The notes below the pieces were generated by a model. It searched no databases. It saw only the letters and a list, made by a program, of their open reading frames with translations, and was not told the origin of the DNA. A DNA stretch of 64,000 nucleotides, from positions 1,699-65,698 of the forward strand of contig CAJMGO010000007.1 of assembly GCA_905212975.1 (NCBI GenBank), read 5' to 3'. Positions within the stretch are counted from its first letter, which is position 1, and each line of letters begins with the position of its first letter. Origin of the DNA: an uncultured Bacillota bacterium (lineage in GTDB: Bacteria > Bacillota_I > Bacilli_A > RF39 > UBA660). The position numbers and the translations under genes were made by a program. This document shows positions 1 through 12,125 of this stretch, in pieces.

Positions 1-2040
1 TTAAAGATTATATTACTGTTTAGTTTTATACTAAGTATAGTTATTTTATTTTTTAGGATTAAAAATGATTCAGTAGAGGAAAGCAATATTACTAGTATAG
101 ATGGTATAGTAAAAGAATATAGCGTTGATGGAGATAAATTAAATATTATTATAGATAATTATAAAGTTATTTATTATTTTAAGAGTGAAAAAGAACTGAA
201 TGATTTTAATATATCATATGGGGATAAAATTAAATTTATAGGTAATTCTTATATACCTAAAAATAATACAAATTTTAATATGTTTAATTATAGGTTATAT
301 TTAAAGAGTAAAAAGATCAATTATATTTTTAATGCAGACAAATATACTGTTATAAAACATAATAAAAATATATTTTATAAAATAAAACAATCTATAAAAG
401 ATAGAATAGAGAGAAATAATAGTAGTATTTATTTAAAATTATTTTTACTTGGAAATAAAGAAGAATTAGATTATAATATAAGCTCTACATATTCAAATAA
501 TGGAATCAGTCATTTATTTGCTGTATCTGGTATGCATATATCTTTACTTACACTTATAATTTATTTAATACTTAATAAATTTATAAAAAATAAAATACTA
601 AATAATATTATAGTATCTATATTTTTAGTATTTTTTTCATTTTTAACTTCTTTTTCTTCTTCTGTATTAAGAGCAGTAATGTTATTTATTTTGTGCAAAA
701 TATTTAAAAGAATCAAAACTCAATATATACTTTTGATTATATTTATGTCACTTATTTTGTATAATCCGTTTTATATTTATGATATAGGCTTTTTATATAG
801 TTTTATTATAACTTTTGGTTTAATTATTTTTTCAGATAAAATAAATGGTAAAAATTATTTTATAAAAGTTTTTAAAACATCTTTAATTTCATTTTTATTA
901 GGTATACCAATATCTATATTAAATTTTCATGAAATAAACTTAATTAGTCCAATATTAAATATTATCTTTGTTCCATTTATTTCTTTTATAATATTTCCTC
1001 TTTCTATTATTACATTTGTATTTCCAACCTTATCTTGTATATTTAATTTTTTTATAAATATACTTGAAGGATTATCAATTTTTTTTAATAATATAACTTA
1101 TTTTAAATTAATACTTAAACATGTGAGCTTATTTTATATATTTTTATATTATTTTGTTATAACATTTATATTGTATAAAAATAAAGTAAAGTATTATGTT
1201 TTGTTTTTATTTATTTTGATTATTCATTCAAATATAAATTATATAAATAATAACTTTTATCTAACTATGTTAGATGTTGGACAAGGGGATTCTATTCTTA
1301 TTGAATTACCACATAATTCTTTAAATATATTGATTGATACAGGAGGTAAGTTTAAATATAATAATGACGTATGGAAAGTAAAAAAGAAAGAATATTCAAT
1401 TGCTTCATCTATTACAATCCCTTATTTAAAATCAAGAGGTATTAAAAAAATAGATTATTTAATACTTACTCATGGGGACTATGACCATATGGGAGAAGCA
1501 ATTAACTTAGTTAATAATTTTAAAATAGAGAGTGTAATATTTAATTGTGGAGAGTTAAATGATTTAGAGAAAAAATTAACTAAAGTATTGAATCAAAAAA
1601 ACATAAAACATGAAATGTGTATTAATAATATAAAAAAGGATAACTATAATTTAGAATTTTTAAATACAAGAATTTATGGTAATGAAAATGATAGTAGTAG
1701 TGTTATTTATACAGAACTTAATGGTTATAAATTTATGTTTATGGGAGATGCTGGGGTAGAAAGAGAAAAAGATATTCTAGATAAATATAATTTATCAGAT
1801 ATTGATGTTTTAAAAGTAGGACATCATGGATCTAATACAAGTAGTAGTGAGAATTTTATAAAGAATATTAGTCCTAAATATAGTTTAATATCTGTTGGAG
1901 AAAACAATAGATATGGACATCCAAAAGATAGTGTTTTAAATATATTAAGAAATAGTAAAATTTATAGAACAGATCAAGATGGTAGTATCATGTTTAAGAT
2001 TAGGAATAATAAATTAAAAATAAAGACTTGCAATCCATAG
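1..2040 (+). CDS. comEC: DNA internalization competence protein ComEC/Rec2 (5' partial; open from window edge)
   Basis: Frame 1 is open from nt 1 to the stop at 2040. Polytopic membrane region with SHLFAVSGMHIS. C-terminal metallo-beta-lactamase fold with HGDYDHMGE and VGHHGS motifs. Confidence 0.88.
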   Translation, partial: LKIILLFSFILSIVILFFRIKNDSVEESNITSIDGIVKEYSVDGDKLNIIIDNYKVIYYFKSEKELNDFNISYGDKIKFIGNSYIPKNNTNFNMFNYRLYLKSKKINYIFNADKYTVIKHNKNIFYKIKQSIKDRIERNNSSIYLKLFLLGNKEELDYNISSTYSNNGISHLFAVSGMHISLLTLIIYLILNKFIKNKILNNIIVSIFLVFFSFLTSFSSSVLRAVMLFILCKIFKRIKTQYILLIIFMSLILYNPFYIYDIGFLYSFIITFGLIIFSDKINGKNYFIKVFKTSLISFLLGIPISILNFHEINLISPILNIIFVPFISFIIFPLSIITFVFPTLSCIFNFFINILEGLSIFFNNITYFKLILKHVSLFYIFLYYFVITFILYKNKVKYYVLFLFILIIHSNINYINNNFYLTMLDVGQGDSILIELPHNSLNILIDTGGKFKYNNDVWKVKKKEYSIASSITIPYLKSRGIKKIDYLILTHGDYDHMGEAINLVNNFKIESVIFNCGELNDLEKKLTKVLNQKNIKHEMCINNIKKDNYNLEFLNTRIYGNENDSSSVIYTELNGYKFMFMGDAGVEREKDILDKYNLSDIDVLKVGHHGSNTSSSENFIKNISPKYSLISVGENNRYGHPKDSVLNILRNSKIYRTDQDGSIMFKIRNNKLKIKTCNP

Positions 2041-2056
2041 AAAGGAAGCTGATAAA

Positions 2057-2875
2057 ATGAATGAAATAAAAGAATATACAACAAAATTATTTGAAGATAT
2101 AAAACATATAGATGAACAAGATAATGAATATTGGTTAGCAAGAGAATTACAAAAAGTTTTAAGATATAATCAGTGGCGAAGTATAAATGATTTAATTGAA
2201 AGAGCTAAAGTTGCTTGTAAAGAAAGTAATAATAACGAAGATGATCATTTTGCGTTACAACGCAAAATGATAAAATTAGCAAAAGGTGCAACAAGAAAAG
2301 TTATAGATTATAAATTATCTAGATATGCATGTTATTTAATAGTAATGAATGGTAATCCTAGGAAAGACATTATAGCTTTAGGACAAACATATTTTGCCAT
2401 TCAAACAAGAAAGCAGGAATTATCAGAAAAAGAGTATAATAATCTTACTGAAGATGAGAAAAGACTATATCGAAGAAATCAAGCAAGAAAAGGTAATTAT
2501 AATTTAAATCAAACAGCAGTTAATAGTGGAGTAAAGGATTTGGCTAGATTTCATAATGCAGGATATAAAGGACTGTATAATGGAGAAACTGCAGATGATA
2601 TATTTAAAAGAAAGAAACTAAGATATAGAGAAGATATACTAGACAATATGGGTAGTGAAGAACTAGCTGATAATATATTCAGGATTGCTCAAACAGATGC
2701 CAAATTAAAAAGAGATAATGTAGATAATGAATATACGGCTAATAGTGTTCACTATGAAATAGGCAAGAAAGTAAGAAAGATAATTGAAGACATGGGTGGA
2801 ATCATGCCAGAAAATTTACCAATTCCAGATAAAAGTTTAAAAGAATTAGAAAAAGAAACTAAAAATAATAAGTGA
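2057..2875 (+). CDS. DinD-family protein (DNA-damage-inducible protein D-like)
   Basis: 272 aa. Motifs LSRYACYL, GQTYFAIQTRKQEL, DEKRL, NMGSEELADNIFR, TDAKLKRD and GGIMPENLPIPD match enterobacterial DinD as I recall it. An RBS lies 8 nt upstream. Confidence 0.6.
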   Translation: MNEIKEYTTKLFEDIKHIDEQDNEYWLARELQKVLRYNQWRSINDLIERAKVACKESNNNEDDHFALQRKMIKLAKGATRKVIDYKLSRYACYLIVMNGNPRKDIIALGQTYFAIQTRKQELSEKEYNNLTEDEKRLYRRNQARKGNYNLNQTAVNSGVKDLARFHNAGYKGLYNGETADDIFKRKKLRYREDILDNMGSEELADNIFRIAQTDAKLKRDNVDNEYTANSVHYEIGKKVRKIIEDMGGIMPENLPIPDKSLKELEKETKNNK

Positions 2876-2954
2876 AACATTATATAATTAATATGGCAAT
2901 AAACAGTTGTTAAATTAGCTGCTTTTCTTTGCTTAAATTCTTATACATAAACGT

Positions 2955-3530
2955 ATGCTACCACATGGTGATTATGATTATATTGGCGAGGCTGTAAATC
3001 TTTTTAATATTTTGAAAGTTAAAAAAGTAGTCTTTAACTGTGGGGAGTTTAATACTTTAGAATCTAGTTTAATAAAAGTTTTAGAAGCAAAAAAATTTCA
3101 TATCAGTCATGTATTAATAAACTTGGTATTGATAACTACCAATTAAACTTTTTAAATGCAAAAGTATTTTGTGATGAAAATAATAATAGTAATGTTATTT
3201 ATACAGATTTTAATGATATAAGTTTATGTTTATGGAATATGCGGGAATTGAACAAGAAAAAGATATTTTAGATAAGTATAACTTAGCAAATATTGAAGTA
3301 TTAAAAGTAGACATCATGGGAGTAAGACAAGTAGTAGTAAAGAGTTTATAGATGAAATAAATCCAAATTATTCCATTATTAGTGTTGGCAAAAACAACAG
3401 ATAAGGTCATCCCAATAAAGAAGTATTAAATAATTTGAGTGATTCAAAAATTTATAGAACGGATCAAGAGGGTAGTATCATGTTTAAGATTAGGAATAAT
3501 AAATTAAAAATAAAGACTTGTAGTTCGTAG
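2955..3530 (+). pseudogene. Decayed duplicate of the comEC 3' region (copy A): HGDYDYIGEAVNLF ... YRTDQEGSIMFKIRNNKLKIKTCSS, with several frameshifts and stops
   Basis: About 70-75% amino-acid identity to ComEC residues about 395-586 when read across three frames. Nt 3450-3530 are nearly identical to 1960-2040. ORF-track entries 2955..3146(+) and 3210..3410(-) are fragments or artefacts of this. Confidence 0.8.
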
Positions 3531-3535
3531 AAAAA

Positions 3536-3554
3536 GTGTCGCAAAATGCGACAC
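3536..3554. repeat. Perfect GC-rich inverted repeat GTGTCGCA-aaa-TGCGACAC at the module-1 junction
   Basis: Read directly. The 8-bp arms are unusual in a 26% GC context. It sits immediately after the comEC-copy stop (3528-3530). Confidence 0.7.
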
Positions 3555-3574
3555 AATTAAGAAAGAAGTTAGAT

Positions 3575-4483
3575 ATGAATTATTATGATCAAATAAAAGG
3601 ATTATTAATAAGCAACGAAGTATATAAGAAAGTAAAGGATTATAGTAAGAACAAGAGTGATGTTGAAACATATTATAATGTTGGAAAGTTAATTATTGAA
3701 GCCCAAGGTGGAGAAAAAAGAGCTAAATATGGCGATGGTTTAATAAAAGAATATTCACAAAGATTAATAATAGAATTAAATGATAAAAAATATAGTTATA
3801 GAAATCTTATGAATATGAGAAAATTTTATTTGTTATTTAGAGATAAAAAAGTGAACGCGCTGCGTTCACAATTGAGTTGGAGCCATTATCGTGAATTACT
3901 ATCAATTAAAAATTTTGATGAAATAATATATTATATAAATTTAGCTATATCAAATAGTCTTGGATATAGAGAGTTAGCAACAAGAATAAAGAATAATGAA
4001 TATAAAAGACTACCAATTGAAACTAAAAATAAATTGATTCTTGATGATAAACTTGAAGTAAAAGATTTGGTGCCAAATCCTATACTAATTAGAAATAAAA
4101 ATAATATTGAAATAGTTACTGAGAAAGCATTACATAATTTAATATTAGAAGATATTGAATCATTTATGAAAGACCTTGGGAATTCATTTAGTTTTATTGG
4201 TAGCAAATATAAAATCAAAATAGGTGACAGAAATCACTATATTGATTTATTGCTTTTCAATATAAAATACAATTGTTATGTAGTAGTTGAATTAAAAGTA
4301 ACAGAGTTTAAGGTAGAATATATTGCGCAAGTTCAAAAATATATGAATTATATAGATAAAAATGTAAAAGAAATAAGTAATAATTCTACTATTGGAATAT
4401 TAATATGTAAGAGAGAAAATAAATTTGTTATAGAATATTGTTCAGATGAAAGAATTGCTGTTAGAGAATATGAATTAGTGTGA
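3575..4483 (+). CDS. DUF1016 / YhcG-like PD-(D/E)xK nuclease family protein (alternative GTG start at 3536)
   Basis: The LSWSHYRELL motif is typical of the DUF1016 N-domain. The C-terminal IDLLLFN...CYVVVELK is a D...E-x-K nuclease core. The MNYY start matches the paralogous remnant at 5525. Confidence 0.75.
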   Translation: MNYYDQIKGLLISNEVYKKVKDYSKNKSDVETYYNVGKLIIEAQGGEKRAKYGDGLIKEYSQRLIIELNDKKYSYRNLMNMRKFYLLFRDKKVNALRSQLSWSHYRELLSIKNFDEIIYYINLAISNSLGYRELATRIKNNEYKRLPIETKNKLILDDKLEVKDLVPNPILIRNKNNIEIVTEKALHNLILEDIESFMKDLGNSFSFIGSKYKIKIGDRNHYIDLLLFNIKYNCYVVVELKVTEFKVEYIAQVQKYMNYIDKNVKEISNNSTIGILICKRENKFVIEYCSDERIAVREYELV

Positions 4484-4489
4484 TATAAT
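4481..4489 (+). promoter_or_regulatory. Extended -10 promoter TGaTATAAT overlapping the yhcG-like stop (GTGTGATATAAT), facing the cargo gene
   Basis: The identical 12-mer is found at 5880-5891 and 6932-6943 in the same relative position. RBS AGGTGG and an ATG at 4515 follow at the appropriate distance. Confidence 0.55.
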
Positions 4490-4514
4490 ATTAATTAGTT
4501 TGTAGGTGGTTTTG

Positions 4515-4991
4515 ATGATTATTAAAGGAACAAGTTGTTATGCAAGTGCCAAAGCCGGCAATTTAGTATCAATTACTGGTGATGGTGGAAATGCCTGGGG
4601 TTTTTATGGTAATGCATATAAGAAAATGTCTCCAAAATTATATTTATGGCAATATTATGATCGAAATACCGATAATTTATCAGAAGATGAATTAATTGAT
4701 TGGTATATAAAAGAATTTTATGATTTAAGGCTGAAAGACTTAAATCCATATGAATTAATGGATACTTTAAAACAAAAATTTGGAGAGGAAATAATATTGC
4801 TTTGTCATGAGTTGCCTGGATTAGAAATAAATAAAGAACATTTTTGCCATAGAAGATTATTAGCAGATTGGATTGAACTTGAAACGGGTATTGTAATTCC
4901 TGAATTATCAATTAATGAATCTGGTGAGATTACCCAAGAAGAAATTTATGATCTCAAACCAAGAATAAAAAAACTAATTAAAAAAGATTAA
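4515..4991 (+). CDS. Hypothetical protein, possibly DUF488-like (cargo 1)
   Basis: RBS AGGTGG lies 6 nt upstream. The C-terminal FCHRRLLADWIE resembles the conserved C-terminal motif of DUF488/YeaO proteins. The assignment is tentative. Confidence 0.5.
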   Translation: MIIKGTSCYASAKAGNLVSITGDGGNAWGFYGNAYKKMSPKLYLWQYYDRNTDNLSEDELIDWYIKEFYDLRLKDLNPYELMDTLKQKFGEEIILLCHELPGLEINKEHFCHRRLLADWIELETGIVIPELSINESGEITQEEIYDLKPRIKKLIKKD

Positions 4992-5022
4992 AGAATTATC
5001 ATAATGGTAATTCTTTTTCTTT
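4992..5022 (+). terminator. Rho-independent terminator (AGAATTATCAT-a-ATGGTAATTCT + TTTTCTTT)
   Basis: 11-bp stem with one mismatch followed by a T-run. A near-identical terminator follows cargo 2 at 6570-6598. Confidence 0.55.
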
Positions 5023-5044
5023 AGTGTTATTTGACTTACTTTTT

Positions 5045-5513
5045 GACAATCACCACATGGTGATTATGACCATATGGGTGAAGCTATTAATTTAGTTAAT
5101 AAATTAAAAAAAGATAATTATAATTTAGAGTTTTTAAATACAAAATTTATGATAATGAAAATGATAGCAGTAGTGTTATTTATTTGAACTATAATGATTA
5201 TAAGTTTTTATTTATGGGAGATGCTGGTGTAGGAAGAGAAAAAGATATTCTAGATAAATATAACTTATCAGATATTGATGTCTTAAAAGTAGGACATCAT
5301 GGTAGTAAGACAAGTAGTAGTAAAGAATTAATTAATGAAATAAAACCTAATTATTCTATAATTAGTGTTGGGAAGGACAATCGTTATGGTTATCCGAATA
5401 AAGAAGTATTAGATAATATAGAAGATTCAAAAATATATAGAACAGATCAAGTTGGTAGTATCATGTTTAAAATTAAAAATAATAAATTGAAAATAGAGAC
5501 TTGTAGTTTATAG
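5045..5513 (+). pseudogene. Decayed duplicate of the comEC 3' region (copy B): HGDYDHMGEAINLVN, then an internal deletion and a frameshift; the last 109 codons are intact (ORF 5184..5513)
   Basis: Direct alignment to ComEC 395-586. The deletion joins NLVNK to KDNYNLEFLN. The tail reads YKFLFMGDAGVGREKDILDKYNLSDIDVLKVGHHGSKTSSS... Confidence 0.8.
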
Positions 5514-5524
5514 GAAGGAGTAAT

Positions 5525-5885
5525 ATGAACTATTATAATGAAATTAAAAATGAATTAATAAATAATGAAATAAATAGAAAAGTTAAAAGTTATTCAATTA
5601 ATAAAAGTGATTTAAATACTTACTATAATGTCGGTAAGTTATTACTAGCTGTGGGTAATCAATATGGAGAAAGTATTATTAAAGAGTATTCAATTAAGAG
5701 AAAGAATAAAATCTAATGAATATGAAAGGCTTCCGGAATCTACTAAAAATAAATCAGTAGAACAAAAAGAATCCGATATAGTTGATTTTATCAAGAATCC
5801 AATTTTGATTAAGAATGATAATAAATATGTAATTAAATATTGCTCTGATGAGAGAATAATTGCTAGAAAATATGAATTGGTGTGA
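5525..5885 (+). pseudogene. Truncated or internally deleted yhcG-like (DUF1016) gene: N-terminal 60 aa plus C-terminal about 70 aa in different frames
   Basis: MNYYNEIKNELINNE...YYNVGKLL matches the N-terminus of the 3575-4483 protein. The tail ...NPILIKNDNKYVIKYCSDERIIARKYELV matches its C-terminus. Confidence 0.75.
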
Positions 5886-5891
5886 TATAAT
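5883..5891 (+). promoter_or_regulatory. Extended -10 promoter (TGTGATATAAT), second copy
   Basis: Same 12-mer GTGTGATATAAT fused to the ...YELV stop. GGAG RBS and an ATG at 5916 lie downstream. Confidence 0.5.
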
Positions 5892-5915
5892 AGATATAGA
5901 TTTGGAGATGATTAG

Positions 5916-6563
5916 ATGAAAATCGAACTTAGTAATTTTACTATTGAATATGACAAAGAGATTGATTATATGTCAAATATAATTTCAACATTAGAAAACA
6001 ATACCATTGAAATTTTAGAATTTTTTGAACTTGAAAAACTTTCTCAAAAAAAGAAAGTAGTGATTTTTACTGATAGAGAAAAATATAAGAAACATTTGTT
6101 GCCATTTGTAAAAGAATTTAAAGAATGGATGTGTGCAGATACATACGATGGTAATATTAACTTGTTAGAAATGTCTGAAGCAAGAAAATCTAAAGAACAT
6201 GAAGATATGGATATGGATGAATTTATAAAATGCATACTACATGAGTTTGTGCATTCATGTCAGCAAGAGTGGAATGAAAATTCTGAGGGTGTTAGTTGGT
6301 ATTGGGAAGCATTGGCAACTAATTTAAGTAATCAAGATTATTCAACAGTTAGTTTAGAAGATTGTGATTTTGAAAAATTAAAAAGTGATTTTAATGGAAC
6401 AGAAAACGGGTATAGTTACTCATATACTTTAGGAAAATACATGCTAGAAAATTATTCTAAAGAAAAATTGTTAGAATACGTTAAGAATCCAGATTTGTTA
6501 AAGCAAGATGCAAATCACATATTTGAAACAGTCAAACAATCACAAAAAAATAAAAAATTATAG
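5916..6563 (+). CDS. Hypothetical HExxH (zincin-like) protein (cargo 2)
   Basis: 215 aa with an HEFVH motif (ILHEFVHSCQQEW) and a downstream Glu (WYWEALA). RBS GGAG. I recognise no other domain. Confidence 0.55.
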   Translation: MKIELSNFTIEYDKEIDYMSNIISTLENNTIEILEFFELEKLSQKKKVVIFTDREKYKKHLLPFVKEFKEWMCADTYDGNINLLEMSEARKSKEHEDMDMDEFIKCILHEFVHSCQQEWNENSEGVSWYWEALATNLSNQDYSTVSLEDCDFEKLKSDFNGTENGYSYSYTLGKYMLENYSKEKLLEYVKNPDLLKQDANHIFETVKQSQKNKKL

Positions 6564-6569
6564 AAATAG

Positions 6570-6598
6570 GAATTATCAATTTGATAGTTCTTTTTATT
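6570..6598 (+). terminator. Rho-independent terminator (GAATTATCAA-t-TTGATAGTTC + TTTTTATT)
   Basis: Stem-loop plus T-run immediately after the stop at 6563. It is paralogous to the 4992-5022 terminator. Confidence 0.5.
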
Positions 6599-6624
6599 CG
6601 ACTTACTTTTTGACAACAACTACA

Positions 6625-6937
6625 TTGGACTATGATCATATGGGTGAAGCTATTAATTTAGTTAATAATTTTAAAATAGAGAGTGTAATATTTAATTGTG
6701 GAGAGTTAAATGATTTAGAAAAAATTAACTAAAGTATTGAATCAAAAAAACATAAAACATGAAATATGTATTAATAATATAAAAGAAGATAACTATAATT
6801 TAGAATTTTTAAATACAAAAATTTATGACAATGAAAATGATACAGTTAGAATTATTATTTGTAAATATAATAATGAGTATGTTATTAAATATTATTCGGA
6901 TGATAGAATAATCGTTAGAGAATATGAGTTAGTGTGA
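6625..6937 (+). pseudogene. Chimeric remnant: comEC 3' copy C (DYDHMGEAINLVNNFKIESVIFNCGELNDLEK...NENDT) fused to the last about 25 codons of a yhcG-like gene (...YVIKYYSDDRIIVREYELV)
   Basis: The first 150 nt are near-identical to comEC 1480-1570 apart from a 1-nt loss in an A-run. ORFs 6508..6732 and 6737..6937 are fragments of it. Confidence 0.75.
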
Positions 6938-6943
6938 TATAAT
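6935..6943 (+). promoter_or_regulatory. Extended -10 promoter (TGTGATATAAT), third copy
   Basis: Same 12-mer. The first ATGs of cargo 3 (6948 to 6963) lie within 5-20 nt, so the transcript may be leaderless or the start lies further downstream. Confidence 0.4.
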
Positions 6944-6947
6944 TAAA

Positions 6948-7586
6948 ATGGATGTGATGATGATGAATTTTAAACAAGAAATTAATGAATTAGAAATGTT
7001 TAATTGTTGTGATGATTTTGTTTTTTATAAAGGTGAAATTCCTATATTATTTTCTGCACCTCATACTATGAGGCAAAAAAAGGAAGATGGAAGTATAAAA
7101 TCATCTGAACCTTATACTAAAGCAATAGCATTATATTTAAATAAGTATTTTAATGTATTTTCAATTGTTAAGATTAATGATACTGGTCTTGATTCAAACC
7201 GCGATAATGATGATAATTATAAAAAAGAATTAATGAAAATAGTTAAAGAAAATAATATAAAATTAGTTATTGATCTTCACGGTGCTTCAAAAGAAAGGAA
7301 TTTTGATGTTGAATTTGGTACGTTAAATAATTTGTCAATAGATTTTTCTACGATAAAAGAGTTGGAAGATGCTTTTAAAGAAAATGGAATAAAAAATGTC
7401 TTATATAATGCACCATTTAAAGGTGGTGCGATTACTCAATATTTATATGGTATAAATGATATTGATGTAGTGCAAATAGAAATTAATGGAAAATATAGAA
7501 ATTCAGATAATATTGATTTATTAAAAAAGATTATTGATTCATTAGTAAATTTTATACATCAGTATAATACGTATATAAATAGATAA
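6948..7586 (+). CDS. Hypothetical hydrolase, possibly N-formylglutamate amidohydrolase (FGase) family-like (cargo 3)
   Basis: ILFSAPHT ... LVIDLHGASKER is reminiscent of the FGase/zinc-hydrolase HxxP...DLHS pattern. The start codon is uncertain (6948-6963). Confidence 0.45.
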   Translation: MDVMMMNFKQEINELEMFNCCDDFVFYKGEIPILFSAPHTMRQKKEDGSIKSSEPYTKAIALYLNKYFNVFSIVKINDTGLDSNRDNDDNYKKELMKIVKENNIKLVIDLHGASKERNFDVEFGTLNNLSIDFSTIKELEDAFKENGIKNVLYNAPFKGGAITQYLYGINDIDVVQIEINGKYRNSDNIDLLKKIIDSLVNFIHQYNTYINR

Positions 7587-7900
7587 TTAGGTTAGTGAAT
7601 ATGAATATTAATAGAATCTATATAGAATATTTAGAAAATAATAAATTTATAAAAAAATATAAATATAAACGCTGATAAACTATTTAAATTTATAGGAATT
7701 TTGAATTTATAGAAGATAATTTAATAATATAGAATATGATGTTATAATAAAAAAATAAAATAGTGTATTATTATGCATGTTTTTTTGTATAGTGTGTAAA
7801 CTTATAATGTATACAATAAAAAATAATTAGCATATAATATTATGTGTGTTATGAAGGGTAATATTGTTTGTACGCTACAGCAAATAGCGTTTATATAGAT

Positions 7901-7928
7901 AGAGAACAAATTTGTTCTCTTTTTTTTA
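7901..7928. terminator. Perfect 20-nt palindrome AGAGAACAAATTTGTTCTCT + T7 (terminator, possibly bidirectional)
   Basis: Read directly from the sequence. Confidence 0.55.
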
Positions 7929-7976
7929 AATTTATATTGAATAAAAAAAATTTTATGTTATAATTATTTATGTAAT

Positions 7977-8053
7977 GTCTCCTTAGCTCAGTTGGCTAGA
8001 GCACGTGACTCTTAATCTCGGGGTCCAGGGTTCGAATCCCTGAGGGGACACCA
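7977..8053 (+). tRNA. tRNA-Lys (anticodon CUU)
   Basis: Manual cloverleaf. Acceptor GTCTCCT/AGGGGAC. D arm GCTC/GAGC. Anticodon loop CTCTTAA. T arm CAGGG-TTCGAAT-CCCTG. Encoded CCA. One T-T mismatch in the anticodon stem. Upstream TTGAAT-16-TATAAT promoter. Confidence 0.85.
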
Positions 8054-8063
8054 TTATGAAAAT

Positions 8064-8096
8064 AACCGTTGAAATTCAGCGGTTTTTTATTTTTTT
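8064..8096 (+). terminator. Rho-independent terminator after tRNA-Lys (AACCGTTGA-aat-TCAGCGGTT + T-run)
   Basis: Stem-loop with one wobble pair, followed by TTTTTATTTTTTT. Confidence 0.6.
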
Positions 8097-8151
8097 AGTC
8101 TTGTTATTTTACTTGAAATTTTTTTAGGTTATTAGTATAATTGTTTTAGAG

Positions 8152-8538
8152 ATGATTTATGTGGAAAGAAATAAAATTGAAAAATTTATACAATTTGTTG
8201 TTGATCTTGTACAAGAAGATGATACTTTTATGAATGGTGGATCCGCTGGTTATTATTTTACTCATGGCGGATGTTATGAATTATTTAAAGTAGTAAATCA
8301 TTATATTCCTGAGACAGTTTGTATGATAAATAAAGAATTAGATCATTGTGCGATAGGTTATAATAACAATATTTATGATGCATTAGGAATTGTTGAAAAT
8401 AAAGATGAGTTTTCTATTGCTACAAAAGAAGATATAGAATATATGGAAAGATCTTTTGGCCTTAAAATTAAATCGTTAGAATCTGATAATATAATAAATG
8501 AGGTTGAAGAATGTAATATAAAAGGTATACTTTATTAG
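8152..8538 (+). CDS. Hypothetical protein
   Basis: 128-aa ORF with no motif I recognise. It abuts the accessory region and the tRNA. Confidence 0.4.
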   Translation: MIYVERNKIEKFIQFVVDLVQEDDTFMNGGSAGYYFTHGGCYELFKVVNHYIPETVCMINKELDHCAIGYNNNIYDALGIVENKDEFSIATKEDIEYMERSFGLKIKSLESDNIINEVEECNIKGILY

Positions 8539-9776
8539 TATGCCTTTTTAATTTCTTTATCTATTGATTTCGCAATAGCATCAATATATTTGTCTTTATT
8601 TGTTTTTATGTTGTTTAAATCAGTATTATCAATTATATATCCAAGTTCTATTAAGTAACTTTCAACTCCAATATTTGAGTTGTAATAAGGATTATTGCCA
8701 TATGTAGATATATTGTTTGCAACATATGCTCCAGTCATTATTCCACCAGTTTCTCTTATTATAAACAAATAATTAGTATTTGTAGATATTCTAGATAGTT
8801 CATATCCTTTTTCTTTAGCACTTTCTTTTGCATTATTTACATCATTTAAAGTTAAAGTTCTTACATAAACTCCGTCTTGTACTTTGTAATGAGTATTATT
8901 TGAATATGTTGTATTTGCTTTTTCTACTATATTTTTTACTATAGTACTTGCAAATTCAAGATTGGTATTATATGGAGCATAAACTTCAACTCCGTGAATA
9001 TTTCCTTTGATTGATAAACTATTTAAGTGAAGGGATATTAAATATTTTGCTTTAACATCTTGTGGGATGATAGCTCTTCCATTTTCTCCATAGGGTGATA
9101 AATATTTATTTTCATCTCTTGTTAATTTTACTTTATAGCCTAAATTTTCTAAATTTTCTTTTAATGAAATAGCATATTCTAATGTATAAAATGCTTCTGT
9201 ATCACTTCCATATATTGCTCCAGTATCATTACCACCATGTCCAGCATCTATTACAATATCGTATATGTTATTATCTTTTTTTGACTTAGTTGTTTTAATT
9301 TTAAATACATTTATATTATTTACTTTACTTGATGTTATAGTTGTTTTTTTATTTTCTTTTATTGCATAATACTCCGAATTGTTATATTCGGTATTATTGT
9401 TAAGACTATAATATTTATCGTTTATTTTTAAAAGTACATAATAATTTTTACATTTTAAATTTTCTAAATTTATGCCTTCATTTATATATTGAGACAAGTA
9501 GAATGTAGTTTTGTTATCATTTTGCTCATAATTTAATTTATAATTTATTTCTTCTTTGTTATTTTTTAATGCAATACTTATGTTTTTAATATCAGTATTT
9601 AAATTAATATTTCCTTTAATATTAAGATGTGTACCATATATTGTATATTCTTCTATATTAGCTTCTTGTTTTTCTATTATTTTTATTACTTTATCACTTA
9701 TATAAAGAGAGTATATAGTAATAATTGAAATAGATATACATAATATAATTATGATACTTATAATTCTTTTTTTCAT
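8535..9776 (-). CDS. N-acetylmuramoyl-L-alanine amidase (Amidase_3 family) with an N-terminal membrane anchor
   Basis: The VIDAGHGGNDTGA motif is typical of MurNAc-LAA catalytic domains. One N-terminal TM helix. Confidence 0.7.
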   Translation of the reverse strand: MKKRIISIIIILCISISIITIYSLYISDKVIKIIEKQEANIEEYTIYGTHLNIKGNINLNTDIKNISIALKNNKEEINYKLNYEQNDNKTTFYLSQYINEGINLENLKCKNYYVLLKINDKYYSLNNNTEYNNSEYYAIKENKKTTITSSKVNNINVFKIKTTKSKKDNNIYDIVIDAGHGGNDTGAIYGSDTEAFYTLEYAISLKENLENLGYKVKLTRDENKYLSPYGENGRAIIPQDVKAKYLISLHLNSLSIKGNIHGVEVYAPYNTNLEFASTIVKNIVEKANTTYSNNTHYKVQDGVYVRTLTLNDVNNAKESAKEKGYELSRISTNTNYLFIIRETGGIMTGAYVANNISTYGNNPYYNSNIGVESYLIELGYIIDNTDLNNIKTNKDKYIDAIAKSIDKEIKKAY

Positions 9777-9917
9777 ATGAGTTAACCACCACTTTAATTA
9801 TAACAAAAAAGTTTTATATATTCTATATACTGTGTTGACTTTTTATAAATATGTGTGTTAAAATTTATTTAGACACAGATAGGTGTTTTTATTTTAGAAA
9901 AAAATAAGAGGTGCAAT

Positions 9918-10097
9918 ATGAAGAAATTAGCTAGATTTCTAGATAGTGTAAAAAAAGAAATGAAGAAAGTTAGATGGCCAAAGAAAAATGAAATATTAAC
10001 TTATGGTACAGTTACAGTATTATTTGTTTTAACGTTTGCAGCATTTTTTGGTATACTTGATGTTGTAATATCAAGCATTAAAACATTAGTGGGGTAG
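9918..10097 (+). CDS. secE: Preprotein translocase subunit SecE (59 aa; below the ORF-track cutoff)
   Basis: MKKLARFLDSVKKEMKKVRWPKKNEILTYGTVTVLFVLTFAAFFGILDVVISSIKTLVG. It lies immediately upstream of nusG. RBS AGAGGTG. Confidence 0.85.
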   Translation: MKKLARFLDSVKKEMKKVRWPKKNEILTYGTVTVLFVLTFAAFFGILDVVISSIKTLVG

Positions 10098-10100
10098 ATT

Positions 10101-10634
10101 ATGGAAAAAGAATGGTATGTAGTTAATACTTATTCTGGGCACGAGAATAAGGTAAAAGAAAAATTAGAAATGCGTGCTAGTACAATGGGAATGGAAGATT
10201 ATATATTTAGAGTAGTTGTTCCAGAGCAAAAAGAAGTTGAATATAAAGATGGGAAAGAAAAAGTAAAAGTTAAAAAGATGTTCCCTGGATATATTTTAGT
10301 TGAGATGATTATGACTGATGAGGCTTGGTTTATAGTAAGAAATACACCTGGTGTTACAGGATTTATAGGTTCATCAGGAAAGGGAGCTAAACCATTTCCT
10401 TTAACTCCACAAGAAGTTGATAAAATACTTGGTAGTATGGGAATGAGCAGACTTGAAATTGGTAATAATTTAAATATTGGTGATATGGTTAAAGTAATAA
10501 ATGGTCCTTTTACATCAATGTATGGAAAAGTTAAAAGTATTGATATGGAAAACCAAAAATTAGAAGTTACTCTTGACTTATTTGGGCAAGAAACTGTTGT
10601 TGAACTTGGAATAAGTGAAATAGAGAAAGCTTAA
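10101..10634 (+). CDS. nusG: Transcription termination/antitermination factor NusG
   Basis: NGN domain (WYVVNTYSGHENKV) plus a KOW motif. Synteny secE-nusG-rplK. Confidence 0.9.
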   Translation: MEKEWYVVNTYSGHENKVKEKLEMRASTMGMEDYIFRVVVPEQKEVEYKDGKEKVKVKKMFPGYILVEMIMTDEAWFIVRNTPGVTGFIGSSGKGAKPFPLTPQEVDKILGSMGMSRLEIGNNLNIGDMVKVINGPFTSMYGKVKSIDMENQKLEVTLDLFGQETVVELGISEIEKA

Positions 10635-10773
10635 ATAAATTAATTGTTTACAAAACAGAAAAAATATGTTATTATTAATTAGCTATATTATTTATTAATA
10701 TAGATTAAGTGGGAGATGTTGGCGGATATCATTTGAACCACTCGCGAAAAAGTATAATATAGGAGGTGTTTTC

Positions 10774-11199
10774 GTGGCAAAAGAAATTACAAAAATAATT
10801 AATTTACAAATTCCTGCTGGAAAAGCTACTCCAGCACCACCAGTAGGTACAGTACTTGGACCTGCAGGTATAAATTTAGGGGAATTTGTTACAAAATATA
10901 ATGATGCTACAAGAGATAAAATGGGAGATATAATACCAGTTGAAATTACTGTTTATGATGACAGATCATTTGACTTTGTATTAAAAACTCCACCAACTGC
11001 ATTCTTAATTAAGAAATTTGCAAAAATTAATAAAGGATCAGTTAAAGGTTCAACTGAAACTGTAGCAACACTTACAAAAGAACAATTAAGAGAAATTGCT
11101 GAAATTAAATTGCCAGACTTAAATGCTTATGGAGTAGAAGAAGCTATGAGAATAGTTGAAGGAACTGCTCGTAACATGGGTGTTAAAGTATCTGAATAA
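10774..11199 (+). CDS. rplK: 50S ribosomal protein L11
   Basis: Conserved L11 sequence (PAGKATPAPPVGTVLGPAGIN). Confidence 0.95.
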   Translation: MAKEITKIINLQIPAGKATPAPPVGTVLGPAGINLGEFVTKYNDATRDKMGDIIPVEITVYDDRSFDFVLKTPPTAFLIKKFAKINKGSVKGSTETVATLTKEQLREIAEIKLPDLNAYGVEEAMRIVEGTARNMGVKVSE

Positions 11200-11265
11200 A
11201 AACATGTAGGTTAATTACCTATGTGGGAGGAAAAATCCGCAAATACCACATAAGGAGGAAATAAA

Positions 11266-11961
11266 ATGAAAAAAGGTAAGAAATATGTAGCTGCATCTTC
11301 AAAAATAGATAAGACTAAATCTTATACTAAAGAAGAAGCTATTAAATTAGTTAAAGAAACTTCAACAGCTAATTTTGATGCAACTGTAGAGCTTGCACTT
11401 AGATTAAATCTTGATACTAAGAAAGCTGATCAACAATTAAGAGGTGCATTAGTACTTCCAAATGGAACAGGAAAAACTAAAAAAGTATTAGTTATTGCAA
11501 AAGGACCTGCTGCTCAAGCTGCAAAAGATGCTGGTGCTGATTATGTAGGAGATACTGACATGCTTGAAAAAATCGAAAAAGAAAATTGGTTTGATTTCGA
11601 TGTTATGGTAGCAACTCCTGATATGATGCCTGCTTTAGGAAAACTTGGAAAAATTTTAGGGCCTAAAGGATTAATGCCAAATCCAAAAACTGGAACAGTT
11701 ACAATGGATACTAAAAAAGCTGTAGAAGAAGTTAAAAAAGGACGTGTAGAATACAGAACTGATAGTTATGGTAATTTACATGTTATCATTGGAAAGGTAT
11801 CTTTCGATGATGAAAAATTAGTTGAAAATCTTAATGCTTTCATGAACTTGATTAATAAAACTAAACCTATGACAGTAAAAGGTAAATATATTTTAAATGT
11901 TGCTGTTACTTCAACAATGGGACCAAGTGTTAAAATTAGTCAAGAAAGCTTTGACTTTTAA
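11266..11961 (+). CDS. rplA: 50S ribosomal protein L1
   Basis: Conserved L1 sequence. Synteny. Confidence 0.95.
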
Positions 11962-11984
11962 TTAAAAATATGTTAGAATTAAAT

Positions 11985-12125
11985 TGTTTCTTGAAAAATA
12001 TATATTAATACCGTAGACAGTAGGTGCTATTAGCTTAATTTCCTACCGAGGATCTTAAATAAATTTTTAAGTCTTTGGCCTTACTGTGAAAAGTTAGGCC
12101 TTTTTTATACGGTGACTCTAAAAAA
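11985..12125 (+). promoter_or_regulatory. rplJ (L10) leader region with hairpin/terminator-like structure (GGCCTTACTGTGAAAAGTTAGGCC + T-run): likely an autoregulatory leader
   Basis: 180-nt intergenic region between rplA and rplJ. The GGCC...GGCC hairpin is followed by TTTTTTAT. This is the classic position of the L10 leader. Confidence 0.45.

Follow-up and report, generated by a model that had tools for sequence, protein, structure and literature searches.

Why does one 12-nt sequence, GTGTGATATAAT, occur exactly three times in a stretch of 64,000 nucleotides from an uncultured Bacillota bacterium (contig CAJMGO010000007.1; the whole 64-kb stretch is called the window below), each time at the end of a yhcG-like nuclease gene or its remnant and each time in front of a different gene? 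The three copies lie on the + strand at 4478-4489 (box 1), 5880-5891 (box 2) and 6932-6943 (box 3), and a sequence-only reading had taken them for an extended -10 promoter that belongs to a conserved module and faces variable cargo genes. Exact search over the window and alignment confirmed the three copies and their fusion to the yhcG stop codon. The module that had been described was too small, since the displaced 3' end of the competence gene comEC at its start and the half-site of a phage attachment site (attP) at its end had been missed; the repeated unit consists of a displaced comEC 3' end, yhcG or dinD, a putative promoter, a cargo gene and a terminator, with the 30-nt attP half at the unit end. 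The account considered likely here is that of promoter-headed accessory units in a comEC island built at a phage attachment site. Of greater interest than the box itself are its surroundings, an accessory-gene island at comEC that bears phage scars, is driven by recombination and is widespread among uncultured gut Bacilli.

A YhcG search with one genome per species gave 79 loci, in uncultured gut and rumen bins named Bacilli, Mycoplasma sp. CAG:472 or Tenericutes, and cross-species counts were taken over 80 related gut-bacterial loci. yhcG was found directly behind comEC in about 60 of the 79 loci, and many carried arrays of two to five modules of the same design; three modules are stacked in the window and up to five in locus L023. 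Conspecific contigs, which were 98-100% identical elsewhere, were found by exact protein look-up of dinD and cargo 2, while the exact YhcG protein of the window was not on record, probably owing to another start in the gene call.

Phage attachment half-sites at displaced comEC ends

The intact comEC gene runs off the left end of the window (1-2040, + strand; Pfam Competence and Lactamase_B) and is 682 aa long in conspecific contigs. Inside it, at 1465-1493 on the + strand, lies the attB sequence CTTACT-CATGG-GGACTATGACCATATGGG, codons L-T-H-G-D-Y-D-H-M-G, with the core CATGG at 1471-1475; the part of the gene from 1471 onward belongs to the newest module. Every displaced comEC fragment begins at the same H-G-D-Y-D-H codons (1471 in the intact gene). 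Each is preceded, just past the hairpin and T-run of the previous cargo, by a conserved 30-nt motif, here called the P arm, of which two main types were observed: type A, ATTCGACTTACTTTTTGACAATCACCA followed by CATGG, and type B, ATTCGTATGCATAAACGTATGTCACCA followed by CATGG.

Type A is also present in viral contigs. In L101 and L103 it is separated by 27 nt from the stop codon of an upstream gene for a 466-aa large serine recombinase (Resolvase, Recombinase and Zn_ribbon_recom domains), in a phage that also encodes a CI-like repressor, Erf and an exonuclease. There the motif runs on as ...CATGGAG GTATGTGGTTAGTAAGTCGAAT and forms an imperfect palindrome with a P' arm, as expected of an attP; the dyad reads ATTCGACTTACT..ACCACAT, GGAG, (G)TATGTGGT.AGTAAGTCGAAT, and the core CATGG(A)G is common to comEC. 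Contig L102 holds the same phage in integrated form, its attL joining comEC ...ACTCATGG to the P' arm; the integrase-side end reads TTAATAATAACTCATGG and then AGGTATGTGG..., that is, comEC codons L-I-I-T-H-G followed by the P' arm. Contigs L104-L107 carry integrases that are 65-74% identical, variant attPs (one with a type-B-like arm) and adjoining CHAP endolysin genes.

The three P arms of the window, each with the core and each on the + strand, stand at 2937-2968 (type B, degenerate, joined to comEC fragment 1), 5029-5060 (type A, one mismatch) and 6596-6628 (type A, degenerate, three mismatches). A canonical type B arm occupies the place equivalent to 2937 in the conspecific contig L090, and a similar arm is present in the attP of phage L104; the arm at 5029 matches the P arm of the L101/L103 attP beside the serine integrase save for that one mismatch. 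Because the P arm matches a phage attP beside a serine integrase, the P-core-comEC' junctions at 2937, 5029 and 6596 are of the attR type, and junctions of this type were found in more than 130 other places. The 80 genome loci contained 31 P arms and 110 metagenome contigs contained 114 (type A scan), all on the + strand; about 100 of the 114 directly precede a comEC H-G-D-Y-D-H fragment, and nearly all P arms lie 0.04-1.5 kb downstream of a yhcG, dinD or comEC 3' end, in modules and not in prophages. A terminator-type architecture like that of module 1 was present upstream of all of them. The best account of these junctions, drawn from sequence comparison, is that a temperate phage family with a large serine integrase would integrate in comEC.

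A P' arm or attL was found, among 190 chromosomal loci, in L142 only; the viral contigs contained no relatives of yhcG, the box or the cargos and no attR with host flank, and gave no match to the type B motif. Clustering of open reading frames (ORFs) over the 80 loci revealed as recombinase only a housekeeping-looking Xer-like gene in three loci, and a Pfam search of 20 cargos revealed none. A dif/Xer or tyrosine-recombinase core, suggested by a weak likeness seen by eye, was dropped once the motif had been found as a serine-integrase attP.

Three side observations concern these phages and arms. In L104 (10110-11168) and L107 (9844-10902), a reverse transcriptase gene (RVT_1, phrog_1423) adjoins tail-fibre-like genes, a layout that resembles diversity-generating retroelements. 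A GmrSD-like/HNH nuclease and an EcoRI-type adenine methyltransferase are encoded at 8808-11100 of L103, near the attP of the L101/L103 phage. At 4263 of L179, a type A P arm with a short comEC fragment stands behind genes for a 558-aa glycosyltransferase and a teichoic-acid-type ABC transporter, with no comEC, yhcG or dinD within 3.5 kb upstream.

Turnover and exchange of the modules

The window was compared with conspecific contigs. Distal modules were common to the conspecific strains and more decayed or truncated, and proximal modules varied. Module 2 is missing from L082, and the breakpoint falls within the repeated terminator-P-comEC stretch. In L092 a deletion extends from dinD into yhcG, and L094 differs in its proximal module. 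L090 and L095 carry an extra 169-aa cargo behind dinD together with an intact but mosaic displaced comEC fragment, of which the first 370 nt are native-like and the last 200 nt match those of the window. Fragment 3 of comEC in the window (6619-6850, + strand) is 91-95% identical to the intact copy and is probably the original native 3' end. Since the distal modules are shared and decayed, and fragment 3 is so close to the working comEC, the newest module would be the one beside comEC and the oldest 3' end the native one.

Exchange between species was observed directly in the sequence borders, which were drawn by sliding identity because BLAST alignments at 90% identity overran into diverged flanks. 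When module 1 of the window is set against the proximal module of L052, identity is 45-70% in the first two thirds of yhcG; at about 4125 it rises to 97-100% and stays there across the box, the cargo and the terminator up to the P arm. Such a change marks a homologous crossover inside yhcG. To the right, identity ends at the att core: a single cargo-terminator-P block continues there into at least 5-6 different comEC 3' sequences. Cargo blocks thus move among genomes as mosaics.

Other observations on the arrays stand beside these. In L142 (Ga0129307_1000331, motif on the + strand), at 5592-7470, a complete P-core-P' site lies behind a normal comEC-yhcG-cargo module and is followed by two single-gene units, one encoding 255 aa and one a 201-aa HTH protein, each with a TRTGnTATAAT box and a terminator and each flanked by a P' arm and a third type of P arm (TTTTCGACACTTAAAAATTGG); the P-core-comEC fragment comes last. 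This arrangement suggests that cassettes bearing full attP sites were integrated at a site of the attR type. The cargo MALPKIMFKE... stands at the head of two successive modules of L012 (6395-9723); its first copy breaks off after about 130 nt and is joined, with no P arm, to a comEC fragment starting at residue 16. The layout resembles the product of tandem duplication or unequal crossover more than that of an att event. Across L003-L079, tblastn of comEC against the window gave 58-74% amino acid identity downstream of the att core vs 36-50% upstream, and the higher 3' similarity may reflect either domain conservation or repeated 3' exchange.

From these data we infer the following order of events. 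Integration into comEC at the H-G-D-Y-D-H codons would be carried out by phages that encode a large serine integrase, and perhaps also by smaller units bearing an attP. comEC would later be made whole with a new 3' end and new downstream genes, and the old 3' end would be left behind with the P arm attached, as an attR-type junction. The array would be a stack of former comEC 3' ends, each with its old downstream genes (yhcG or dinD, then cargo), and the newest module would adjoin the working comEC. The comEC 3' end, yhcG or dinD, and the P arm would act as homology arms, by which cargo blocks and whole modules could be exchanged, added and lost between strains and species, plausibly after natural transformation, which is served by comEC itself.

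Several points weigh against this order of events. No prophage or attL was found in any array locus. The joining of cargo terminators to P arms and the restoration of comEC would require a further, putative step, either ordinary or short-homology recombination or an integrase insertion in trans that regenerates the target. The cassettes of L142 look as if they had been integrated at an attR-type site, although canonical serine integrases should not act there. The high conservation of the P arms could mean that the arms are still in use, which a passive scar would not predict.

In a different reading, possible though doubtful, the modules themselves are mobile as circles that comprise a comEC 3' end, yhcG or dinD, a cargo, a terminator and a P arm, and their insertion at the comEC site is catalysed in trans by a phage serine integrase. 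An intact comEC and a new attB would be regenerated every time, and the array would grow at its proximal end, comparable to SCC at rlmH or cassettes at attI. The exact joining of one cargo-terminator-P block at the core to so many comEC 3' sequences fits this reading, as do the P arms with 0-1 mismatch next to truncated comEC fragments, the retention of exactly the minimal half-site with no further phage DNA, the full P-core-P' sites of L142 with single-gene cassettes between P' and P, and the proximal position of the variable modules. Such a circle would, however, bear a P-core-B' (attR-type) site, and large serine integrases are not known to recombine this type of site with attB. No circular junctions were seen, there is no integrase in or near any array, perfectly conserved P arms would be preferred points of homologous crossover too and would leave the same pattern, and the left borders of the shared blocks vary inside yhcG. 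A broader form, held to be just as tentative, makes the comEC site the acceptor of a cassette system run by phage large serine integrases, in which integrase-less units (half-site or full attP, promoter, gene, terminator) are inserted in trans and some bring a replacement comEC 3' end. If this were true, the replacement 3' ends would regenerate the target, the array could keep growing and competence would be restored after each hit.

Ownership of the putative promoter

In the sequence-only reading the promoter was part of the conserved module, and any inserted gene would be expressed automatically. This was not supported, as the box follows the cargo across different upstream contexts. Whether yhcG or dinD stands upstream, the DUF488 cargo has an unchanged box and leader (ATTAATTAGTTTGTAGGTGG), and the same holds for the MALP... 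cargo. For the FGase cargo a TRTGnTATAAT box was found after a yhcG remnant, after a terminator and in other settings, and the single-gene cassettes of L142 have their own boxes behind the phage P' arm. In the mosaic comparison the box lay inside the exchanged block and not at its edge. The frame of dinD also ends in the box in two metagenome loci (...TTG TGA TATAAT). Because the same cargo keeps box and leader behind unrelated upstream sequences, the cargo is predicted to be a self-contained unit of promoter, Shine-Dalgarno (SD) sequence, ORF and terminator, and the putative promoter to travel with it. The earlier interpretation of the box was supported in part. The fusion of box and yhcG stop is read as compaction at a shared junction, the TGA in the box doubling as the yhcG stop.

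An integron-like platform, in which a fixed promoter of the yhcG module faces an insertion site and promoterless genes are expressed automatically, is accordingly rated unlikely. It draws on the fusion of the box to the yhcG stop in 42 of 70 cases, before more than 25 different genes, on the end of homology directly past the box and on the apparent growth of the array next to a conserved gene. Against it stand the presence of the same cargo with the same box and leader behind dinD, terminators or P' arms, the position of the box within the exchanged block, and the separate box and terminator of each array cargo, unlike integron cassettes, which are read from one Pc; nor was a recombinase gene linked to the site or recurrent in the flanks of the 80 loci. 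What remains of the expression-site idea is a conserved promoter-like box at the boundary of module and cargo; its ownership by the module does not.

Two further candidates for the conserved elements were set aside. A shared leader as recombination arm was too weak, with the shared SD motif in 13/52 cases vs 29/677, only a mild enrichment. A promoter formed at the P junction, for which type A yields TTGACA-16 nt-TATGAT, is not a general explanation, since type B lacks it.

Conservation of the box and the promoter prediction

Within the window, each copy of GTGTGATATAAT is preceded by ...(E/K)YELV, and the stop codon TGA lies inside the box; box 1 ends the intact yhcG gene, and boxes 2 and 3 end decayed remnants. 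In the three-way alignment of the yhcG ends, column identity was about 76% upstream, the 12 box columns were invariant, and homology was gone past TATAAT. The three copies are paralogous parts of one repeated module and so do not count as three independent occurrences. Looser versions with up to two mismatches were found 21 times in the 64 kb vs 19.3 expected and are uninformative, because AT-rich DNA gives matches at chance level. All three copies contain TGTGATATAAT, which matches TRTGnTATAAT (TGTG-A-TATAAT), so that the extended -10 that had been proposed is a perfect TGnTATAAT and in fact the longer TRTGnTATAAT, with -16 TRTG and -10 TATAAT as the promoter-like element of, for box 1, cargo 1. 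The start codons of cargo 1 (ATG 4515, 25 nt past box 1) and cargo 2 (ATG 5916, 24 nt past box 2) lie at the distances given before. A leaderless transcript, which had been considered for cargo 3, is unneeded, because the homologues, which begin MNFEQ or MFEQ, and the gene calls of 207-208 aa place the start at ATG 6963, 19 nt past box 3, with the SD-like GGATGTGAT at 6950-6958 upstream.

Across species, conservation of the box in homologous arrays, which had been proposed as a check, was clear. The stop codon was TGA in 55 of 70 comEC-linked yhcG genes vs 91/509 (18%) long ORFs of the same loci (Fisher p = 6e-24), and TGATATAAT was found exactly at 42/70 comEC-linked yhcG ends vs 1/19 yhcG genes outside the comEC context (p = 1e-5), with 51 of the 70 at most one mismatch from TATAAT. 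The last yhcG codon varies among species (GTG, GTA, ATG), and all variants keep TRTG. Conservation falls to background level from the first base past TATAAT in the 80 loci, and the boxes precede more than 25 mutually unrelated downstream genes. A TRTGnTATAAT within 60 nt upstream was present at 36/44 ORFs starting just after a yhcG, dinD or comEC 3' end vs 28/486 others (p = 1e-30), with the -10 mostly 18-22 nt from the ATG and the SD lying between. For dinD-linked cargos, the box was exact in 15/30 and one base off in most others. The box was also kept beside yhcG pseudogenes (window copies 2 and 3, L023 and L063) and where it is no longer the stop codon (L040, L041, L050 and L142); in L040, L041 and L050 it lies 12 nt beyond a TAA stop of yhcG, and its distance to the cargo is unchanged.

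The reading of GTGTGATATAAT as a sigma-A type promoter of the Gram-positive '-16' extended -10 class, TRTGnTATAAT, is thus well supported as a prediction; we infer promoter activity at the boxes from conservation and position. The putative promoter would start a very short, SD-bearing leader of about 12 nt for the following gene. Other data speak against this part of the account. A single-sequence promoter scan gave 65 promoter-like sites vs 59.9 expected and was unusable as evidence, and the 9-mer TGATATAAT is not rare, with 8 occurrences in the window vs about 6.5 expected by a rough base-composition estimate. The match in the -35 region is poor (TAGAGA or TAGAAA, spacer 16). No terminator lies between yhcG and the cargo, so read-through could express the cargo without the box. 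Nor are the counts wholly independent of each other, since the loci share ancestry and exchange DNA.

That the box is kept solely by descent or hitch-hiking, as a segment end or recombination joint, and is no promoter, with the cargo expressed by read-through from comEC and yhcG, would suit the paralogy of the window copies, the missing terminator between yhcG and cargo, the chance frequency of promoter-like strings in the window and the spread of modules between species, but is very unlikely, since the box stays constant while synonymous and flanking positions vary, TGA is favoured over the usual TAA only in yhcG genes that have the box, the box persists at decayed yhcG copies where the terminator of the upstream cargo should stop read-through (window modules 2 and 3), and it recurs before cargos outside yhcG contexts, mostly 18-22 nt from the ATG.

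Gene content of the window and of related arrays

Domains in the window were assigned by Pfam, NCBIfam and PADLOC; all features below are on the + strand unless stated. The newest module has as its first gene, instead of yhcG, a dinD-like Bro-N gene at 2057-2875 (NCBIfam DNA damage-inducible protein D, 338 bits; PADLOC PDC-S13; Pfam Bro-N). Past its stop, at 2876-2936, a degenerate box (TATATAAT) and a 7-codon mini-ORF precede the P arm, and the equivalent place in the conspecific L090 holds a TGTGTTATAAT box and the 169-aa cargo, which is transglutaminase-like, so that the window seems to have lost that dinD-linked cargo.

Module 1 begins with displaced comEC 3' end no. 1 (2958-3530), a frameshifted pseudogene (tblastn 48% over residues 1-189 of the C-terminal part of comEC; repeat families D1-D14). 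It is followed by the sole intact copy of the yhcG-like PD-(D/E)XK nuclease gene (3575-4483; Pfam DUF1016_N and YhcG_C; PADLOC PDC-S02), whose TGA stop lies in box 1. Cargo 1 (4515-4991) encodes a DUF488-like protein of 158 aa with a weak Pfam DUF488-N3a match and the SD GTAGGTGG upstream; copies 90-97% identical stand behind yhcG or dinD in other genomes. A hairpin terminator with T-run (TTTTTCTTT), read from the sequence at 4992-5022, closes the module.

Module 2 has displaced comEC 3' end no. 2 with an internal deletion (5053-5513; repeat families and tblastn), a yhcG remnant with an internal deletion and a frameshift (5525-5885; ORF list and tblastn), which is less decayed in the conspecific contigs L080 and L096, cargo 2 (5916-6563; 215 aa with an HEFVH motif and no Pfam family match) and a hairpin terminator (6569-6595). 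In module 3 the last ~100 nt of yhcG (6836-6937) are fused by a deletion to comEC fragment 3, and cargo 3 (6963-7586), FGase-like by Pfam, is 207 aa long from ATG 6963. The distal island edge, ACGCTA..TAGCGTTTATATAGAT with a terminator hairpin (7870-7920), lies before tRNA-Lys (7977-8053), which is followed by secE-nusG-rplK-rplA; the ACGCTA...TAGCGTTTATATAGAT element with its hairpin was also found downstream of the last cargo in L004, L030, L034, L035 and L038. An Rfam search of window positions 1-12000 matched the tRNA alone, and the distal-edge element has no Rfam family.

In other species the cargos include MA-type metallopeptidases, Zn-phospholipase-C-like proteins, a phosphodiesterase, GNAT, ADP-ribosylglycohydrolase, peptidase S51, transglutaminase-like proteins, DUF488 and FGase, and many have no family. 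The place of yhcG is taken by dinD, or by no gene, in some modules, and a role of yhcG as homing nuclease or recombinase found no support, as dinD or no gene can replace it. A reduced module recurs in L050 (10988), L067 (9571), L182, L184, L207, L211 and others, and consists of P arm, about 10 nt of comEC, a shared stretch of about 25 nt (ATCAGTTCATGCATAT...), the last ~45 nt of yhcG, box and cargo; decay there strips comEC and yhcG yet spares P arm and box, as it does in window module 3 and L022.

Perfect palindromes, GC-rich and 19-28 nt long, were observed in the very AT-rich DNA at 2244-2271 (in dinD) and 3851-3869 (in yhcG), with a third at 3536-3554 between the displaced comEC end and yhcG; a terminator scan flags the palindromes on the - strand. 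Behind tRNA-Lys, a phage YunG-like gene (8152-8538) overlaps by 4 nt the end of a convergent gene of 413 aa (8535-9776), whose product is Amidase_3 in conspecific gene calls, and the YunG-like gene may be another small insertion at the tRNA.

Comparison with known systems

Gene-disrupting prophages with serine integrases include A118 in comK and SPbeta in spsM. The Streptococcus pyogenes phages Phi1207.3 and Phi10394.4 use a serine recombinase and integrate inside comEC (PMC4260502), and mobile elements that target competence genes block curing by transformation (PMC12637031). The phage family described here resembles the comEC and comK phages in its large serine recombinase, its attB within a competence gene and the split gene of the lysogen (attL of L102); unlike those of the S. 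pyogenes phages, its hosts are uncultured gut Bacilli, and a limited literature search found no mention, for the earlier phages, of stacked attR-type junctions beside a restored comEC.

The cargo units resemble phage morons or lysogenic-conversion units in being single genes with their own promoter and hairpin terminator beside a phage att arm, and in their diverse and patchy repertoire (GNAT, ADP-ribosylglycohydrolase, metallopeptidases, DUF488). They differ from morons in that no cargo, yhcG end or box was found in viral contigs, and the arrays are chromosomal and without a prophage.

SCC islands of staphylococci lie at the 3' end of rlmH (orfX) and are mobilised by Ccr large serine recombinases. 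The comEC island shares with them small elements, many of them recombinase-less, that are stacked at one site in a conserved gene, bounded by target repeats, with the target left intact. SCC repeats about 15-18 nt of its target, whereas the comEC island repeats 570 nt of comEC plus yhcG; no ccr-like gene is present in the comEC island, the recombinase is phage-borne, and mobilisation of the modules is putative.

With integrons the island has in common an ordered set of single-gene units at a fixed site with the newest one proximal. It departs from them in having no integrase next to the site and apparently no attC, in the putative promoter and the terminator that belong to every single unit, and in the demonstrated exchange by homologous recombination. 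The 3' end of a unit is formed by a variable hairpin, a conserved T-run, a spacer and the P arm, and is read as a terminator with a serine-integrase half-site rather than as an attC.

In rhs and cdiA orphan modules, displaced 3' ends encode toxins and come with immunity genes, and no att site is present. The comEC array is similar in that old 3' ends and partner genes pile up downstream and the conserved part is a recombination arm, and different in that each displaced comEC end starts at the phage crossover point and carries the phage P arm.

Gram-positive '-16 region' extended -10 promoters of the form TRTGnTATAAT were reportedly described by Voskuil and Chambliss in 1998. The boxes agree with this class in the perfect TGTG-A-TATAAT match, the weak -35 and the short distance to SD and ATG; unlike in that class, the TG here is also part of the stop codon of the upstream gene, and activity is a prediction. 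Precedents exist for moron-like units, for extended -10 promoters and for tandem accretion at integration sites. A limited literature search found no description of stacked comEC 3' ends with serine-integrase half-sites or of modules of yhcG or dinD with cargo.

Biological meaning of the comEC island

Phage integration in competence genes is regarded as a phage strategy against self-curing of the host by transformation, and the comEC locus seems to record this conflict from the side of the host, in a large group of uncultured gut bacteria. comEC would have been hit many times and be intact again each time, with the old 3' ends and phage half-sites stacked behind it. The P arm joined to a comEC fragment may serve as a marker to count past phage integrations in metagenomes. 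For organisms without genetic tools, the box is a candidate strong and portable promoter, and the attP/attB pair with its integrase is defined for the same bacterial group. The leftovers of integration appear to have become a hotspot of gene exchange, in which the conserved pieces would act as recombination arms and each accessory gene would carry a compact promoter close to consensus.

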